64,000 nt of DNA from an uncultured Syntrophaceae bacterium (GCA_964558665.1 CAZLFA010000001.1:52562-116561); one strand, 5' to 3'. Shown: positions 19,124 through 45,428, counted from the first letter of the stretch. A program made the numbers and translations. The notes: generated by a model not told the origin, from the sequence alone.

Positions 19124-19278
19124 AGATTAATATTGTGCAACACTTGTGTCAATCGGTTTCATAAGGAGATTTTAGAAATTTCTTTATGATGAATAAAGCA
19201 TGATTGACATCCGGGACCATACTCTTTATATCTTTAGAATCACAACGCAAATATGATGCGGACAGAAGAGAGCATGAC

Positions 19279-20202
19279 ATGAACTATTCCAGGCTGAAGA
19301 TTTGGATACGTGCCTTTCGGCTTCATTTTGTGCTTCCGGCCGTGCTTCCTGCCCTGCTCGGCAATGCCATTGCCTGGGCGCAGGGATACCCTTTTCATGC
19401 ATGGCATTTTTTGCTGGTTATGGTTGGGGTAACACTGAACAGCATGGGATTGAATATGCTGGATGATGTTGTCGATTTCAAAAACGCCGTTGATCGTAGA
19501 ATGACCCTGGACAAAAATCCGTATTCGGGGGGAAGCGGCATATTGACAGGGGGTATGCTGACACCTGAAGAAATGCTGACCGCTTCAGTCTGGTGCTTTA
19601 CCGGAACGGCTTCGGCAGGGATCTATCTTGGATGGATGTGCGGCTGGCCTGTTTTGATGCTTTGCTTGATCGGACTGCTGTCATCTATATTTTATACGGT
19701 GCCCCCCGTTAAGTTCGGCTACCGGGGGTTCGGCGAGGTCGGTTTGCTGGTGAATTTCGGCCCTGTTATAGTCCTTGGCGCCTATTATGTCCAGGCAGGC
19801 AGATTTTCCCTGGAACCGCTTCTGGCGTCCCTGATTTTAGGATTGATGATGTGGTCGATGATCCTCGTTAATGAAATACCCGATTATGATGAAGATCGGC
19901 ATGCCGGAAAGTGGAATCTGGTTGCCAGATTCGGAAAACAGACAGGCTTGATGCTTTACAGCCTCGGTCTGGTTGCCGCATATCTGGTACTTTTTCTGAT
20001 GGTGATAGCCGGTGTAAGCAACCCCCTTGTCCTTTTAGGATTGATCAGTTTGCCATGGTCGCTTCATTCCATGCTGGTAGCGAAACGCTTTCATGACAAT
20101 CCGCTTCTCATTGCTCCGGCAAATCTGTCGATGATTAAAGCCCATACGGTAATGGGATTGGGACTGGTGGTTTCTTATCTGGTCGGTGGTTTTATGAGAT
20201 AG
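19279..20202 (+). CDS. menA: UbiA/MenA family prenyltransferase (DHNA octaprenyltransferase-like)
   Basis: NMLDDVVDF..VD, FYT.PP..GY.G.GE, NEIPD..ED..AGK..L..R.G. Confidence 0.7.
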   Translation: MNYSRLKIWIRAFRLHFVLPAVLPALLGNAIAWAQGYPFHAWHFLLVMVGVTLNSMGLNMLDDVVDFKNAVDRRMTLDKNPYSGGSGILTGGMLTPEEMLTASVWCFTGTASAGIYLGWMCGWPVLMLCLIGLLSSIFYTVPPVKFGYRGFGEVGLLVNFGPVIVLGAYYVQAGRFSLEPLLASLILGLMMWSMILVNEIPDYDEDRHAGKWNLVARFGKQTGLMLYSLGLVAAYLVLFLMVIAGVSNPLVLLGLISLPWSLHSMLVAKRFHDNPLLIAPANLSMIKAHTVMGLGLVVSYLVGGFMR

Positions 20203-40039: not shown

Positions 40040-40675
40040 CTGGCGCGCGGTCTTTATGGCTTTTCTTATAAGCAGACCGGCAGAGCGGATCGCCTCCCTG
40101 TCTTCCGTGACGCCAAGCTTTGTCGTTTTATAGGAAAGGTCATCATTCATCCTGCCGGAGACAGCGCCGACCCCGAAAATGGCGCCTGCTGCATGAACCG
40201 AGGGGGTCCACATCTCATGCAGGAGAAACGCGTTGTGCATGCTCTCCAGAGTGGTTTCAATGCCGCCGTTTCTTGTCCACGCAACAGTCATGGCTATGCC
40301 CACCTTGCCTCTGAGCGCGAGATGCCCCATTTTGCCGAAAATGAAGCAGCGCGTCCTGTCGATGAGACAGGCCATAGTCCCGGAAAGTCTTGCGAAATAA
40401 ACAGGAGAGGCTAATAGCAGTATGTCGCATGCCAGGATTTGCTGAAGAATCCTTTCAGCGTCATCGGCTATGCTGCAAAGTTTGTCAGGTGTCTGCTTTC
40501 TCATGCACCAGTTGCAGTGTATGCAGTCGGATATCTTCAAGCCGGCAAGATCGATACGTTCTATGGAAATGTCCTTTTCTTTTACTGCAGAATCGAGCGC
40601 GGCATCGAGCAGACAGGAGGTGTTGCCCTTTTTGATGGGGCTGGAATTAATGGCCAGAATCTTTATCGTGGTCAT
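40022..40675 (-). CDS. Iron-sulfur flavoprotein / NADPH-dependent FMN reductase family
   Basis: NSSP.K.GNT, CIHCNWC-x9-C, LASPVYF, IDR. Confidence 0.8.
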   Translation of the reverse strand: MTTIKILAINSSPIKKGNTSCLLDAALDSAVKEKDISIERIDLAGLKISDCIHCNWCMRKQTPDKLCSIADDAERILQQILACDILLLASPVYFARLSGTMACLIDRTRCFIFGKMGHLALRGKVGIAMTVAWTRNGGIETTLESMHNAFLLHEMWTPSVHAAGAIFGVGAVSGRMNDDLSYKTTKLGVTEDREAIRSAGLLIRKAIKTARQLKSAT

Positions 40676-41610
40676 GTTGCCTCATCTGGTTTGTTTTGCC
40701 TTTTGTCAATGCAGAAGTTGCTTCCCCTGGTCCGCTTGGCGAACTTTTTCATTTCAGAAGCGGCTTCGGTAAGAGCTCCATAGTGGGAGTATGACCTTGT
40801 CCTCGTTTCGGTGATACCTATGGAAATTCCTATGATCGGGAATGTCCTCAAAACACCCTGACGGTCGACCGCTTCTATATGGCCCCTTTCCTTGTCATCC
40901 TGATCATAGAAGGTCGGTATAATGCTGTCAAAGGCGCTTATGATCCTGCCGGAAGTTTCCTCTACGAGATCCACATCCATGATATAGATAAAATCGTCAC
41001 CCCCGATATGGCCGATAAAGCTGTTTTGCGGCTGCATGCTCTTTACAATATTCAGAACGAGTCTGCCCGTGATCTTGATGACATCATCTCCCCTGCTGAA
41101 ACCGTACTTATCGTTCAGAGGTTTAAAATGATCGAGATCCGCATATGCAAAGGCAAAAGTTTCTTTTCTGGCAAGTCTCTCTTCGATCTGGCGATTTATG
41201 GATATATTGCCGGGGAGCCTGGTAAGGGGGTTTATCTCCACTATGCGTTCAGAACGGAGCATGGCCAGATTAAATCTGGCAGACAGCTCTTTTTCGAGAT
41301 CTCTTTTCCATATAAAATCCTCAATGAACAGATTTGTCACGTCTGCAACCTGCGAAAGCTCTTCCAGTATGGCAAGGATGGGAAGCTGGCTGAACATGGG
41401 ATCGCCTTTCAGGTTGCTGATGTGGGATGCGGCATCCTTATCGCTGCTGCTGATATCGATTATGATCAGATTGGGTATAGAGTTGTAGATGAAATCGATT
41501 GCAGAGGGGATGTTACGGAAAATTACAGTTTGGTGTAAAGGGCTGATGGTTCTGTCGGCGATATTGGTGGCCACTATGTCTTGAGAGACGATAACGACGG
41601 TTTTCATCAT
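40672..41610 (-). CDS. Diguanylate cyclase (degenerate receiver plus GGDEF)
   Basis: NPLTRLPGN, DLDHFK..ND.YG..GD, GHIGGDDF, SIG. Confidence 0.9.
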   Translation of the reverse strand: MMKTVVIVSQDIVATNIADRTISPLHQTVIFRNIPSAIDFIYNSIPNLIIIDISSSDKDAASHISNLKGDPMFSQLPILAILEELSQVADVTNLFIEDFIWKRDLEKELSARFNLAMLRSERIVEINPLTRLPGNISINRQIEERLARKETFAFAYADLDHFKPLNDKYGFSRGDDVIKITGRLVLNIVKSMQPQNSFIGHIGGDDFIYIMDVDLVEETSGRIISAFDSIIPTFYDQDDKERGHIEAVDRQGVLRTFPIIGISIGITETRTRSYSHYGALTEAASEMKKFAKRTRGSNFCIDKRQNKPDEAT

Positions 41611-42446
41611 TAAAGGGTCAGTTCTCCCGTGGCGTCTGTGGACTCGTCTATTTTGACGAGGATTTCTTTGATATCGATATCTGAAAGACTTAATATTTCA
41701 AATGCCGTGTTGTTCACAACGGGAACAAAAGGATCTCCGGCAAATCCTACTCCCCTTGCACGCACAAGAATGTCCGCCATGTGTACTACGGCTGTTTCCA
41801 TAGGCGCTATCTTGGAGAGGTTGGGACTGTGATGATAGGCGATCACCTCTATCAGGTTCTTCGGGAAGCGCCACTTTTCAGACAGCCATAAGCCGACATT
41901 GGAGTGAGGATCACTGAAAGTGACTTTTTCCGCTTCATATATCGATATCGCCTTTTCCCGTGACACCTGCAAAGCAGCTTCATACTGTTCCTGGTATTCC
42001 AGCATGAGAATCACCTTGCCCAGATCATGCAGCAGACCGGCAATTGAAATCTCTTCCGGATCCTTAATCCCCTTCTTTTCCGCTATGGCTCTTGATGCAA
42101 CGGCACAACCCAGGGAATGGTTCCAAAGACCGGACATGACTTTTTCCATGATTTCAAAAACGGATATGCCCAGGAGCAATCCCTTCACAACATTCAGCCC
42201 CAGGAGCATGATCGCGTGAGACACAGATGATATTCTGCCGGGAAAACCGTATGCCGCGGAGTTGACCATCTTCAGGACTTTTGTAGTCAATGCCGGATCA
42301 TTGGAAACAAAATGGCTGATCTCGTCCAGAGTAATCCTCGGCTTTTCAATTATCGCCGATATTCTCTTCAGCATGCCGGGAACAGTCGGCAGTGCAGAGA
42401 TGTTTTCGATTCTGGCACGATGAACCTTCGTTACCTGGTTAGCCAT
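41610..42446 (-). CDS. HDOD domain protein
   Basis: LPT.P, DPALT.KVLK.VNSA.YG, A.M.LG, GLLHDLGK, W.FP..L...I..HH. Confidence 0.9.
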   Translation of the reverse strand: MANQVTKVHRARIENISALPTVPGMLKRISAIIEKPRITLDEISHFVSNDPALTTKVLKMVNSAAYGFPGRISSVSHAIMLLGLNVVKGLLLGISVFEIMEKVMSGLWNHSLGCAVASRAIAEKKGIKDPEEISIAGLLHDLGKVILMLEYQEQYEAALQVSREKAISIYEAEKVTFSDPHSNVGLWLSEKWRFPKNLIEVIAYHHSPNLSKIAPMETAVVHMADILVRARGVGFAGDPFVPVVNNTAFEILSLSDIDIKEILVKIDESTDATGELTL

Positions 42447-42735
42447 ACAAACCCTCAATATATTCTTTCAGGACTTTTTTAATAAAGCCCATGTGGGGCT
42501 GATCTTCGACAGGCTGAAATCTGGCATCGAGCAGCGACAAGGCCTCATCTTTTGGAATCGGCTGCACGGTGGGACCGTCAATATAAATGGCCTCAATACT
42601 CATATCCTGTATGCGCTCTACCCATTTTTCAGTCAGCACGGTGCCCTCACTCAACAGGACCATGCCGTTCTTGTCAGTGATCGGCTTTACCAATTTCATT
42701 CCGACTTCGATTTTATCTATGGGTATTCTAGGCAT
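42439..42735 (-). CDS. Small protein resembling the N-terminal extension of HD-GYP proteins
   Basis: I.IDKIEVGM.L...I....G.VLL..GT.LT...I..I......IYI pattern. Confidence 0.7.
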   Translation of the reverse strand: MPRIPIDKIEVGMKLVKPITDKNGMVLLSEGTVLTEKWVERIQDMSIEAIYIDGPTVQPIPKDEALSLLDARFQPVEDQPHMGFIKKVLKEYIEGLYG

Positions 42736-42918
42736 AGCAAAGACCTTATATTGATGACTGCAAAGGACCATATCCTTTTTTTATTAAAAAAACAATCATT
42801 ATTGGCAAACGTTTTAAAGACTTTTCTCATTATGACATGAATTTCTGTTGACAGATTGTTTTAGAAGTTCTATACAGAAACCCGCTGAAAATACAGAAGC
42901 TGAAGGTTTGATCTGAAC

Positions 42919-42999
42919 ATGTTGAACACCCCGAACAGCATTATCATTATTGGCGGTATAATTAGGCCCGGATACATAGGTGGCCTGATGGGGGTGTAG
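42919..42999 (+). CDS. Ile-rich attenuator leader peptide (26 aa)
   Basis: MLNTPNSIIIIGGIIRPGYIGGLMGV*, with 7 Ile including a run of four. Lies between a TTGACA (42848) promoter candidate and the terminator. Confidence 0.8.
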   Translation: MLNTPNSIIIIGGIIRPGYIGGLMGV

Positions 43000-43024
43000 C
43001 GTTTATATACATAAATGAGTTTAA

Positions 43025-43062
43025 AATCCGTTATCAGGCAGACTGGTAGCGGATTTTTTTTT
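43025..43062 (+). terminator. Attenuator terminator hairpin upstream of cimA
   Basis: AATCCGTTATCAG-GCAGA-CTGGTAGCGGATT (13 bp, 2 G:U) running into a 9-T tract at 43054-43062. Confidence 0.8.
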
Positions 43063-43080
43063 GACCGGAAAGGATGGGAT

Positions 43081-44709
43081 ATGAAAACAGCGGATGTTTT
43101 GATTTATGACACTACACTGAGAGATGGCACGCAGGGGGAGCAGATCAACTTTTCCGCGGAAGAGAAGATGCGGATTGCTCAACGCCTTGACGAGATGCAT
43201 TTTCATTATATCGAGGGAGGATGGCCGGGGTCCAATCCAAAGGACATGAGGTTTTTCGAACTTGCCAAAACAAGGCATTTCAGGCATGCGCGCCTTACTG
43301 CATTCGGCAGCACGAGGAAGGCCGGTGTCGGACCCGGTGAGTGCTCCAACATAAAAGCCATTCTGGATGCCGCCACACCGGCTGTGGCGATTTTCGGCAA
43401 AACATGGGATTTTCATGTCACGGATATCCTCTGTGTATCTCTGGAAGAAAATCTTGCCATGATCCATGAATCCGTCGCCTATCTGAAGTCAAAAGGCAGA
43501 GAGGTGATTTACGACGCGGAACATTTCTTTGACGGCTATAAGAACAATCGCGAATATGCTCTGAAAACCATAACCGGGGCTCTTGAAGCCGGAGCCGACA
43601 TGATTGTCCTCTGTGATACCAACGGAGGAACCCTCCCTTACGAGATTTCTGCAGTAATCAGGGACGTTTCTTCCCTGATACCGCTGAAGCGGATGGGCAT
43701 TCATGCCCATAACGACAGCGGATTGGGTGTAGCCAACTCACTGGCAGCCATACACGAAGGTGTGAAGATGGTGCAGGGCACCATTAATGGTTATGGAGAG
43801 CGATGCGGAAATGCCGACCTGATAACGATTATGGCAAATCTGCAATTAAAGATGAACAGGCGTTGCCTGCCGGAATCGTCATTAAGACAGCTTACTTCGC
43901 TATCCAATTATGTAAGCGAGGTGGCCAACATTCCGCCCCTTAATTCAAGACCCTTTGTAGGGCGAAGCGCCTTTGCCCACAAAGGCGGCGTCCATGTCAA
44001 CGCTGTCTTGAAAAACTCGGCGGCTTACGAGCACGTCGATCCGGAGACCGTCGGCAACCAGCAGCGCGTGCTGGTTTCTGATCTGGCAGGCAAGAGCAAT
44101 ATCGAGTATAAGGCCAGAGAGCTGGGTATCGACCTTACCAGCGATGATTCGGTAAGCCGGAAAATTGTCCAGCAGATAAAGCATATGGAGGATGAGGGGT
44201 ATCAGTTTGATGCCGCTGAGGGAACTCTTTCACTGCTTATCAAGAAGATTACGGGAGAGTTTAAGGAACCGTTCACTCTGGAATGTTTTCATGTAATTGC
44301 CGCGAAAATGGGAAATGAAAGGTCAACGGCACAGGCAACAATCAAGATTTCCGTCGGCGACGAGGAGGAACTTACCGCAGCCGAAGGCAACGGGCCGATT
44401 AATGCCCTTGACAATGCGCTGAGGAAAGCACTCACCAAATTTTATCCGCAGATAAAAGAGATGCACCTGGTTGATTTCAAGGTAAGAATAGTTGAGGGCA
44501 GCGAGGGAACCGCAGCGAAGGTCAAAGTTACACTGGAATCCAAAGATGAGCAGGACATCTGGAGCACCATCGGAGTCTCGGAAAATGTTATTGAGGCCGG
44601 CTGGTATGCCCTGGTGGACAGTATTCAATACAAATTGAGCAAAGACAGGGTCAACAAGAACACAAAAACAGGAATAAAAAGAACCAGGCTACAGACTGCG
44701 CGGCATTAG
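43081..44709 (+). CDS. cimA: Citramalate synthase (CimA, Geobacter-type LeuA paralogue)
   Basis: YDTTLRDGTQGE, YIEGGWPGSNPKD, IFGKTWDFHV, YDAEHFFDG, LCDTNGG, HAHNDSG, GYGERCGNA, C-terminal regulatory domain. Confidence 0.9.
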   Translation: MKTADVLIYDTTLRDGTQGEQINFSAEEKMRIAQRLDEMHFHYIEGGWPGSNPKDMRFFELAKTRHFRHARLTAFGSTRKAGVGPGECSNIKAILDAATPAVAIFGKTWDFHVTDILCVSLEENLAMIHESVAYLKSKGREVIYDAEHFFDGYKNNREYALKTITGALEAGADMIVLCDTNGGTLPYEISAVIRDVSSLIPLKRMGIHAHNDSGLGVANSLAAIHEGVKMVQGTINGYGERCGNADLITIMANLQLKMNRRCLPESSLRQLTSLSNYVSEVANIPPLNSRPFVGRSAFAHKGGVHVNAVLKNSAAYEHVDPETVGNQQRVLVSDLAGKSNIEYKARELGIDLTSDDSVSRKIVQQIKHMEDEGYQFDAAEGTLSLLIKKITGEFKEPFTLECFHVIAAKMGNERSTAQATIKISVGDEEELTAAEGNGPINALDNALRKALTKFYPQIKEMHLVDFKVRIVEGSEGTAAKVKVTLESKDEQDIWSTIGVSENVIEAGWYALVDSIQYKLSKDRVNKNTKTGIKRTRLQTARH

Positions 44710-44746
44710 GTACTTTCCATTAAAGCTTATTTTTTCCAGTTAAGCA

Positions 44747-44775
44747 TTGATAATCCGCAATTCTTCTGGTACATT
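44747..44775 (+). promoter_or_regulatory. Candidate sigma70 promoter
   Basis: TTGATA, 17 bp, TACATT with an extended TG. Confidence 0.5.
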
Positions 44776-44819
44776 ACCCCCCGATTTTGTTATGCGTTAC
44801 ACCCGCATTCGGTAAATAT

Positions 44820-45428
44820 ATGTTATTCTCTGTGAACAATCAAAACCCACAGATGCGCCTCATCAGAAAGGCCGTGGATATCCTGAAAAACGGAGGCATT
44901 GTAATATACCCTACCGATACCGTCTACGGCATGGGGTGCGACCTCTTTAACAAAAAGGGAATTGAAAAAATTTACATGATTGCGCAGAGACATAAGCAGC
45001 AGCCCCTGAGCTTCATCTGCGCGGACCTGAAAGATATAAGCCATTATGCCCGTGTATCAAATTACGCTTATAAAACCATGAAACGCCTCCTTCCGGGACC
45101 CTATACGTTTATTCTGGAGGCATCGAGACTGGTTCCGAAAATCATTCTTCCCAAAAGACAGACAACAGGCATCCGGGTCCCGGACAACCCTATATGCCGT
45201 GCCCTGGTTTCTGAATTCGGACAGCCGGTCATCAGCACGAGCGTAAAAGATGCAAACGATGAACTGATGAGTGATCCCCGGGAAATCGAAAGACGATTCG
45301 GGCATTGTGTGGATTTGATAATTGACGGCGGCATTCTGGTTCCGGAGGAATCGAGCGTGATAAGCCTGGTTGATGATGCCGCGGAAATAATAAGAACAGG
45401 AAAAGGCGACGTGTCGGCCTTTCAATAG
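44820..45428 (+). CDS. Sua5/YciO/YrdC family protein (threonylcarbamoyl-AMP synthase-like)
   Basis: YPTDTVYG.GC, LLPGPYTFIL, TGIRVPD, STS, SSVI.L. Confidence 0.85.
   Translation: MLFSVNNQNPQMRLIRKAVDILKNGGIVIYPTDTVYGMGCDLFNKKGIEKIYMIAQRHKQQPLSFICADLKDISHYARVSNYAYKTMKRLLPGPYTFILEASRLVPKIILPKRQTTGIRVPDNPICRALVSEFGQPVISTSVKDANDELMSDPREIERRFGHCVDLIIDGGILVPEESSVISLVDDAAEIIRTGKGDVSAFQ

Follow-up and report, generated by a model that had tools for sequence, protein, structure and literature searches.

The 64,000-nucleotide stretch of DNA analysed here (the window), from an uncultured Syntrophaceae bacterium, carries directly upstream of cimA, the gene of (R)-citramalate synthase, an element that is very probably an isoleucine-specific, ribosome-mediated leader-peptide transcription attenuator controlling this gene. 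The sequence holds the features of that class of regulators: a short leader open reading frame (ORF), a cluster of Ile codons, a terminator, a mutually exclusive antiterminator and a spacing that is compatible with the ribosome footprint (Table 1). The same element was found directly 5' of cimA in at least 31 distinct loci of Syntrophales, Smithella and Desulfobacterales-like bacteria (28 in alignment A3 and three extra loci). An initial annotation of the window had proposed an Ile-sensing attenuator at this position, and that reading appears well supported at the level of sequence, with minor corrections; its suggestion that related genomes might carry Ile-rich leaders upstream of cimA is borne out by these 31 loci.

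Table 1. Features of the cimA leader region. Percentages of paired cells and covariation refer to the 28 sequences of alignment A3, with slid registers and 500 shuffles as controls; the slid-register controls are somewhat biased, because the sequences are related and the structure was derived from the window.
Feature	Position	Strand	Basis and remarks
Promoter -35 hexamer TTGACA, perfect	42848-42853	+	Conserved 5' of the leader in relatives
Promoter -10 hexamer TATACA, 4/6 matches, 17-nt spacer	42871-42876	+	Sequence
Weak Shine-Dalgarno-like GAAGG, 11-12 nt 5' of the leader ATG	42902-42906	+	Anti-Shine-Dalgarno duplex only -3.5 kcal/mol
Leader ORF, 26 codons and TAG (42997-42999)	42919-42999	+	ATG start; translation MLNTPNSIIIIGGIIRPGYIGGLMGV
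First regulatory cluster, four Ile codons ATT ATC ATT ATT	42940-42951	+	Translation
Second regulatory pair ATA ATT, overlapping segment 1	42958-42963	+	Alignments A2 and A3
Seventh Ile codon ATA	42976-42978	+	Translation
Segment 1 ATTAGGCC, 5' arm of anti-antiterminator 1:2	42961-42968	+	Complementary to 42982-42989
Segment 2 GGCCTGATGGGGGT, partner of segment 1 or of the terminator 5' arm	42982-42995	+	Folds, alignment
A/U-rich spacer hairpin CGTTTAT-ATAC-ATAAATG, small, within the antiterminator loop	43000-43017	+	Folds
Segment 3, terminator 5' arm (43023-43037) and antiterminator partner (43026-43039)	43023-43039	+	Folds, covariation
Segment 4, terminator 3' arm	43043-43057	+	15-bp stem
T-run, nine T, U-tract of the intrinsic terminator	43054-43062	+	Sequence
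Anti-antiterminator helix 1:2	42961-42968/42982-42989		78.8% of cells paired (slid 24-51%); 4 compensatory pairs (only 4 cells)
Antiterminator helix 2:3	42983-42994/43028-43039		87.8% of cells paired (slid 23-46%); 4 compensatory pairs; covariation above all 500 shuffles
Terminator helix 3:4	43023-43037/43043-43057		96.2% of cells paired (slid 22-51%); 4 compensatory pairs; covariation above all 500 shuffles
cimA Shine-Dalgarno AGGA	43071-43074	+	Outside the terminator hairpin, sequence
cimA, (R)-citramalate synthase, 542 aa	43081-44709	+	TIGR00977 equivalog

The cimA gene and its promoter

CimA opens the threonine-independent pathway to isoleucine. That the gene is cimA, as the initial annotation had it, was confirmed by protein family models: its product scores 723.5 bits against TIGR00977 (cut-off 450), and every leuA model remains below its cut-off, the best of them reaching 249-290 bits against cut-offs of 517-599. 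The product has an HMGL-like domain, an HCS_D2 domain and a C-terminal LeuA allosteric domain, and its homologues carry the label "2-isopropylmalate synthase" in many sources. Judged by these homologues, the bacterium falls within or close to Syntrophales. Downstream of cimA are tsaC (Sua5/YrdC family) and an RNase E/G gene. Upstream of the element, on the other strand, there are a small ORF, an HDOD-domain gene and a GGDEF-domain gene.

Regarding transcription, the start is predicted near 42883, downstream of the promoter hexamers. In each of the 27 loci whose DNA reaches far enough 5', the leader is preceded by a perfect TTGACA, usually separated by 17 nt from a TA-rich hexamer. The possibility raised in the initial annotation that transcripts might begin downstream of the leader finds no echo in the sequence, where the conserved promoter is upstream. 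The distance from the end of the -10 hexamer to segment 2 is 91-123 nt in the loci with short leaders (91-107 nt in all of these except L161) and 111-175 nt in those with long leaders. The Shine-Dalgarno sequence of the leader, weak in the window, is stronger in several relatives and lies there 3-7 nt from the ATG.

The leader ORF and its isoleucine codons

Seven of the 26 leader codons encode isoleucine, two of them as ATA, and six of the seven fall within nine codons; with two Leu and one Val, the peptide is essentially Ile-only. The initial annotation gave the same length and Ile count, and its coordinates and pairings are all correct, but it was mistaken in stating that the ORF track misses the leader: the ORF is listed at a threshold of 20 aa. 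Among the 780 small ORFs of the 64-kb window (15-45 aa, both strands) it ranks first for Ile clustering, the runner-up having five Ile per nine residues versus six in the leader, and the binomial probability of at least seven Ile in 25 residues is 0.0017 at the Ile usage of the window (7.3%). This runner-up, at 19902 on the minus strand, was put down to chance because it is antisense within a 332-aa ORF and neither a terminator nor a promoter accompanies it. The idea that ATA could act as a rare, "hungry" codon was rejected, since ATA makes up 29% of the Ile codons in the long ORFs of the window.

In the related loci an ATG-started ORF with 5-12 Ile spans the region in 29 of 30 cases. The mean number of Ile per best ATG-ORF in these 30 loci is 7.4 in the leader frame versus 0.2 and 0 in the other two frames, and ATAATT is the best-conserved Ile pair in two MAFFT alignments, A2 (19 sequences) and A3 (28 sequences). 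Beyond its Ile richness, the leader peptide is not conserved among relatives, and the position of the stop codon relative to segment 2 varies by locus (+14, +3 or about -17). In the window-type frame (GGC CTG ATG ... TAG) the stop lies 14 nt past the start of segment 2; in L001, L166, L082, L081, L023 and L009 it is a TGA within GGCCTGAT, and in L171 a TAG directly after segment 1. As the Ile ORF is confined to one frame, the peptide is unconserved and the frame shifts, two targets of selection appear to exist, the RNA helices and, apart from them, a stretch of Ile codons that is translated; this is the signature of a leader-peptide attenuator. The distance from the last regulatory Ile codon to segment 2 is 22 nt in the window and 18-22 nt in all 19 Syntrophales-type loci.

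Alternative RNA helices

Four segments of the leader RNA can form three helices. Helix 1:2, in which ATTAGGCC (42961-42968) pairs with GGCCTGAT (42982-42989) over 8 bp including one G-U, exists in the window just as the initial annotation had drawn it; in the relatives it shows no covariation beyond that of shuffled alignments, its score being matched by 182 of 500 shuffles (28 sequences). The core of helix 2:3, GCCTGATGG (42983-42991) with its complement TTATCAGGC (43031-43039), had also been paired correctly and proved longer than claimed, with folding giving an antiterminator of 13 bp with one bulge (42983-42995 with 43026-43039). The terminator had been described as a hairpin ending in nine T, and the sequence has precisely this, on a 15-bp stem with loop GCAGA. 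Taken in isolation, the helices have energies of -11.5 kcal/mol (1:2), -19.5 kcal/mol (2:3 with the enclosed spacer hairpin) and about -19.7 kcal/mol (3:4), a hierarchy that by analogy resembles that of classical attenuators. The spacer hairpin itself is not kept in relatives (alignment A3).

When the leader (42919-43010) is paired with the 5' arm of the terminator, the most stable duplex has an energy of -17.2 kcal/mol and coincides exactly with segment 2. In 1000 dinucleotide shuffles of the leader this energy was never reached (mean -9.8, standard deviation 1.95). As a side observation, the minimum free energy (MFE) structure of the window pairs the start of the leader, CACCCC (42928-42933), with GGGGGTG (42990-42996). 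L161 seems, by eye, to have an echo of this long-range pair; the pair is not claimed here because RNAalifold did not recover it.

Conservation and covariation

The pairing of all three helices among the 28 sequences is given in Table 1. In the antiterminator, GAU:AUC is replaced by GGY:RCC in the Smithella clade, in L165 and in L015/L086, amounting to at least three independent compensatory events, with the nearest relatives of L165 keeping A-U, and each of these changes also fits the terminator 3' arm. Helix 1:2 has a patchier record: RNAalifold independently predicts it in nine Syntrophus-type loci, the Smithella group has another short hairpin (GCTTCC/GGAGGC) in its place, and in the folds of several relatives it is weak or different. 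We treat it as real in the window and not as proven for the whole family.

At the level of primary sequence, the GGCCTGAT core of segment 2 is nearly invariant in A3. Both alignments contain a near-invariant core in the order ATAATTAGGCC ... GGCCTGAT ... TAGTGTTTC ... AAAATCCGTTATCAGG ... CTGGTAaCGGATTTTTTT, and the region 5' of this core is variable, yet always an open Ile-rich frame.

Proposed mechanism

None of the helices includes the cimA Shine-Dalgarno, and for this reason the control would act on transcription termination, set by translation of the leader, rather than on translation initiation. The term "translational" attenuator used in the initial annotation should thus be replaced by transcription attenuation. 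From the arrangement in Table 1 we infer the following course for the start of transcription, leader translation, stalling, termination with its efficiency and the response to isoleucine. The sigma-70-type promoter (TTGACA, 42848-42853) would start the transcript, and a ribosome would translate the 26-codon leader behind the RNA polymerase. With ample Ile-tRNA, the ribosome would reach the TAG at 42997 and cover segment 2 (42982-42995), which after ribosome release would pair with segment 1 (42961-42968); the terminator 5' arm would stay free, the 3:4 hairpin (43023-43057) would form and transcription would stop in the T-run (43054-43062), before cimA. When charged tRNA-Ile is scarce, the ribosome would instead stall on 42940-42963, covering segment 1 and leaving about 10 nt uncovered 5' of segment 2. 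The latter could then capture 43026-43039 once this is transcribed, so that the terminator would be pre-empted and the polymerase would enter cimA.

Occupancy folds, in which the nascent RNA extended to the end of segment 3 and ribosome footprints of 28 nt were forced unpaired, are consistent with this course. For the window, the probability of helix 2:3 is 0.05 in free RNA, with segment 2 then 73% paired upstream; 0.50 with the ribosome on the last regulatory Ile codon, where the MFE structure is the antiterminator; and 0.00 with the ribosome on the stop codon. Averaged over 19 loci, the same three states give 0.42, 0.69 and 0.00. Helix 2:3 is dominant already in the free RNA of eight of the 19 relatives (probability of at least 0.7), and because of this they presumably rely on masking by the ribosome and not on helix 1:2. 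In full-length RNA at equilibrium the terminator is always preferred, and even with footprints blocked the antiterminator is never favoured. A thermodynamic switch was rejected on these grounds; the switch would have to be kinetic, and helix 2:3 would have to be in place before segment 4 has been transcribed. Classical attenuators are likewise kinetic.

Distribution among cimA loci

The cimA loci were obtained from a genome-collection scan and a metagenome scan (CimA alignment), plus individual close homologues; two close CimA relatives, P0002 (93% identity) and P0004 (83% identity), were left out of the DNA comparison. An Ile-rich ORF with hairpin and T-run is carried by Syntrophus, Smithella and Syntrophales loci (L001-L009, L023, L081, L082, L161/162 and L164-L170), and a longer form by Desulfobacterales- or Desulfatiglandales-like loci (L010-L015, L083, L084 and L086). 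Among the matches listed from the metagenome scan, mostly distant loci, only L081-L084 and L086 carry the element. Among the cimA loci collected, it was not found at those of Geobacter, Bacillota and other more distant groups, and it is also missing in L163, a close relative in which 36 nt separate cimA from the gene before it.

A covariance model, R1, was built from alignment A3. In the 64-kb window it has a single match, and it has none in about 140 other loci that have no ORF-plus-hairpin signature. Applied out of sample to three distinct cimA loci that were not part of its training, R1 matched all three 5' of cimA with 70.9-78.8 bits, and each of their leaders is Ile-rich (MTRNIITIIIVQGIIR, MKNIIIRSIIIIEGIISPSDIGDLIMV and MNTTTIRPIIISSIIISFPTGGLVVV).

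Leader composition and operon content

The amino acid composition of the leader largely follows the genes downstream. At loci where cimA is followed by tsaC (the window, L001-L005, L007, L008, L161 and L164-L169, plus L171-L175, which had no part in building R1), leaders contain 5-11 Ile and no more than two Leu. At the cimA-leuA loci L010-L014, L083 and L086, the leader has 37-52 aa with 5-12 Ile, 7-14 Leu and up to six Val, and these long leaders also have an extra internal hairpin; the leuA gene 3' of cimA scores 780-790 bits there against NF002086 (cut-off 532). The argument of the initial annotation that a leader with Ile and almost no Leu or Val points to cimA and not to leuA is in line with this pattern, as cimA-leuA loci mostly add runs of Leu and Val. 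There is one exception, L023, with leuA downstream and an Ile-only leader, where a promoter-like site and a hairpin with T-run lie between cimA and leuA. A less clear exception is L009, with leuA 40 nt past cimA and six Ile and three Leu in the leader.

This correlation between composition and operon content would be difficult to account for if something other than the codons were sensed. We are slightly inclined to go further and to regard the element as an undescribed Ile-specific attenuator family for the citramalate route of Syntrophales, Smithella and Desulfobacterales-like bacteria, in which codon content has been re-tuned to operon content on a conserved core. If true, isoleucine alone for cimA, and isoleucine with leucine and valine where leuA has joined, would form a natural series of attenuator-specificity evolution.

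Alternative explanations

The conserved RNA could instead be a terminator/antiterminator switch that binds a ligand, a tRNA or a protein, the small ORF being incidental. No Rfam family reaches its gathering threshold in the whole window. In a permissive scan of positions 41000-45000 with Rfam 15 the best match is Trp_leader (RF00513), with 18.5 bits against a gathering threshold of 41 and E=3, and this match arises from the terminator; a permissive scan of the elements of five relatives gave no match, T-box included. The T-box and riboswitch ideas were dropped because these scans gave no family even at permissive E-values. A switch of this kind would fit the fact that the best conservation is at the RNA level (GGCCTGAT, CCGTTATCAGG and TAGTGTTTC, the last being a motif without explanation), as well as the lack of in-frame conservation at the C-terminus of the peptide and the weak Shine-Dalgarno of the window leader. 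However, there is no conserved aptamer-sized structured domain besides the alternative helices, and the stretch from promoter to segment 1 is variable except for an ATG-ORF rich in Ile in one frame only. Since it would also leave unexplained both the 18-22 nt distance between Ile codons and segment 2 and the link between composition and operon, we consider this explanation improbable.

Even less probable, to the point of being very doubtful, is that the product of the ORF is itself functional, as a small hydrophobic peptide such as a membrane micro-protein, with the hairpin as its terminator or insulator and cimA transcribed separately. Separate transcription would find no promoter-like site in the 18 nt between the end of the T-run (43062) and the cimA start in the window, and a plain terminator has no need of 2:3 covariation. 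The Desulfobacterales-type leaders (37-52 aa, rich in Ile, Leu and Val) do look like single transmembrane helices, and gene callers annotate extended versions of them as hypothetical proteins, but only Ile richness is conserved in the peptide, its stop position and frame vary, and the element is always attached to cimA among the loci compared. Viewed in a single window, the arrangement could also be a plain 5' UTR in which a small ORF and a hairpin stand together by chance; terminator-like hairpins occur in shuffles at about 0.9 per kb. This last explanation deserves hardly any credence and can be regarded as effectively refuted by the comparative data: the arrangement is kept in 31 distinct loci with compensatory changes. 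In addition, no shuffle attains the duplex energy of 2:3, and the ORF has no equal in Ile clustering among the 780. A leader-peptide attenuator that senses isoleucine stands as the preferred reading.

Comparison with known attenuators

By its function, the element would be one of the classical leader-peptide attenuators (trp, his, leu, thr and ilv). The archetype of leader-peptide attenuation is trpL, and in E. coli and Salmonella it has the same parts as the element described here, namely a promoter, a short ORF with clustered codons, segments 1-4 and a terminator before the first gene, with similar relative helix energies. It differs in that it senses Trp and not Ile, comes from another phylum and has no sequence homology with the cimA element; the window leader departs from it as well in having its stop codon just after segment 2. 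Closer in the signal are ilvL (of ilvGMEDA) and thrL, which share with the cimA leader the Ile codons, the choice between terminator and antiterminator and a control over enzymes feeding isoleucine synthesis. The ilvL leader is multivalent (Ile, Leu and Val), thrL senses Thr and Ile, and both serve the threonine-dependent route, whereas the window leader is essentially Ile-only and would control CimA, the threonine-independent entry enzyme. The Desulfobacterales-type cimA-leuA leaders are nearer to ilvL in composition than the window leader is.

Leader-peptide attenuation of branched-chain genes has been described for Corynebacterium ilvBNC (PMC11857589, PMC10272879), for S. aureus ilv-leu, with a Leu-rich attenuator peptide (PMC5794164), and for other actinobacterial leaders (PMC1262725). 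As in the cimA element, the signal is set by the codons that the leader contains, and these leaders show that such attenuation occurs outside Proteobacteria; their targets (ilvB, leuA), amino-acid specificities and RNA sequences are different, and none of them controls cimA. The T-box leaders located 5' of leuA and ilv genes in Bacillota (PMC12452182) are also alike in having a leader terminator that is read through when the cognate tRNA is uncharged, but they bind the tRNA directly and need no translation, and there is no T-box match here.

As an RNA family the element is apparently undescribed. The literature covered, including the genome-wide attenuator survey of Naville & Gautheret 2010, yielded no account of an attenuator or leader peptide for cimA or citramalate; the word "undescribed" is provisional, because the coverage of the literature is incomplete.

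Significance

Since the mechanism itself is textbook, it will be of little surprise to the specialist. For annotation, the element offers sequence-level support for naming this LeuA-family gene a citramalate synthase devoted to isoleucine. It also adds a cis-regulatory RNA family that is not yet curated, whose covariance model works and can help to annotate metagenome-assembled genomes, and a compact Ile-responsive switch that could serve metabolic engineers who already exploit cimA. Regarding evolution, Ile-only and Ile/Leu/Val leaders on one switch core would make a clean system in which to follow how specificity evolves. For the biology of these bacteria, it suggests how poorly studied, hard-to-culture syntrophic anaerobes may control the threonine-independent route to isoleucine.

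Conservation of the leader and its RNA core

Across the loci, the leader ORF stops at one of three places, +14, +3 or about -17 nt, counted from where segment 2 of the conserved RNA core begins. The C-terminus of the leader peptide can thus vary freely, whereas the RNA core stays fixed. The motif TAGTGTTTC lies directly 3' of segment 2 (42997-43005 in the window, columns 49-57 of the 28-sequence alignment A3), and it is also kept where the leader ORF ends earlier, either with a TGA in segment 2 or with a TAG that follows segment 1. Its role as the stop codon thus does not by itself account for its conservation, and it may be a pause signal or a back-up stop signal. In two metagenomic loci, gene callers had extended the leader ORF N-terminally in the same frame and called it a hypothetical protein; neither extended ORF has a Pfam match. 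The coordinates of these and other features are listed in the table below.

Features of the cimA region (L numbers, cimA loci of related genomes and metagenomes)
Feature	Position	Detail
Extended leader ORF	L161:2752-2925	57 aa
Extended leader ORF	L168:402-521	39 aa
Stop inside GGCCTGAT	L001, L166, L082, L081, L023, L009	TGA
Stop directly after segment 1	L171:~480-500	TAG
Long-leader element	L010:2230-2420	
Long-leader element	L011:190-386	
Long-leader element	L012:2240-2469	
Long-leader element	L013:130-344	
Long-leader element	L014:165-349	
Long-leader element	L083:990-1168	
Long-leader element	L086:960-1172	
Spacer and tsaC	window 44710-45428 (tsaC 44787-45428)	3' of cimA
GGDEF-domain gene, HDOD-domain gene, small ORF	window 40672-42771 (-)	divergent from cimA

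Variation among related loci

Desulfobacterales-like loci with leuA 3' of cimA carry this terminator/antiterminator core behind a longer leader (37-52 aa), which is rich in Ile, Leu (7-14) and Val and has an additional internal hairpin, GCAACAGGG/CCCTGTTGC. This form looks like a multivalent variant of the cimA attenuator. In the cimA-leuA gap of locus L023 (3930-4150), the sequence TTGACG resembles a promoter element, and a further hairpin is followed by a T-run; the gap has no Rfam match. These features suggest that leuA has its own, independent leader there, which fits the Ile-only cimA leader of the same locus.

The whole element is missing from L163:1-603, despite close kinship (CimA 76% identical), and only 36 nt separate the cimA start from the preceding CTP_transf_like (nadD-like) gene, an arrangement indicating that the attenuator was lost or bypassed in this lineage.

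Within the window, Rfam gave zero families at the gathering score (1-64000, both strands). The runner-up in Ile clustering among small ORFs, MPIFIIIGYFINEDHRPHHQS (19840-19902, -), runs antisense within a longer ORF of 332 aa (19204-20202, +). It lacks a terminator context and was judged a chance occurrence.

Gene neighbourhood

The divergent neighbours of cimA are kept in an 82%-identical relative (L161:577-2640). The small ORF among them (~100-110 aa) has no family match, and ends ~75 nt from the cimA promoter. Downstream, tsaC is the next gene in every Syntrophales-type locus with enough sequence 3' of cimA, except L006; the order is the same in L001-L005, L007, L008, L161 and L164-L175. 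Between the two genes in the window, no + strand terminator was found, and there is a promoter-like site at 44747-44775. TsaC acts in the synthesis of t6A, which modifies ANN-reading tRNAs, tRNA-Ile included, so a functional link between tsaC and the Ile-codon sensor is conceivable.
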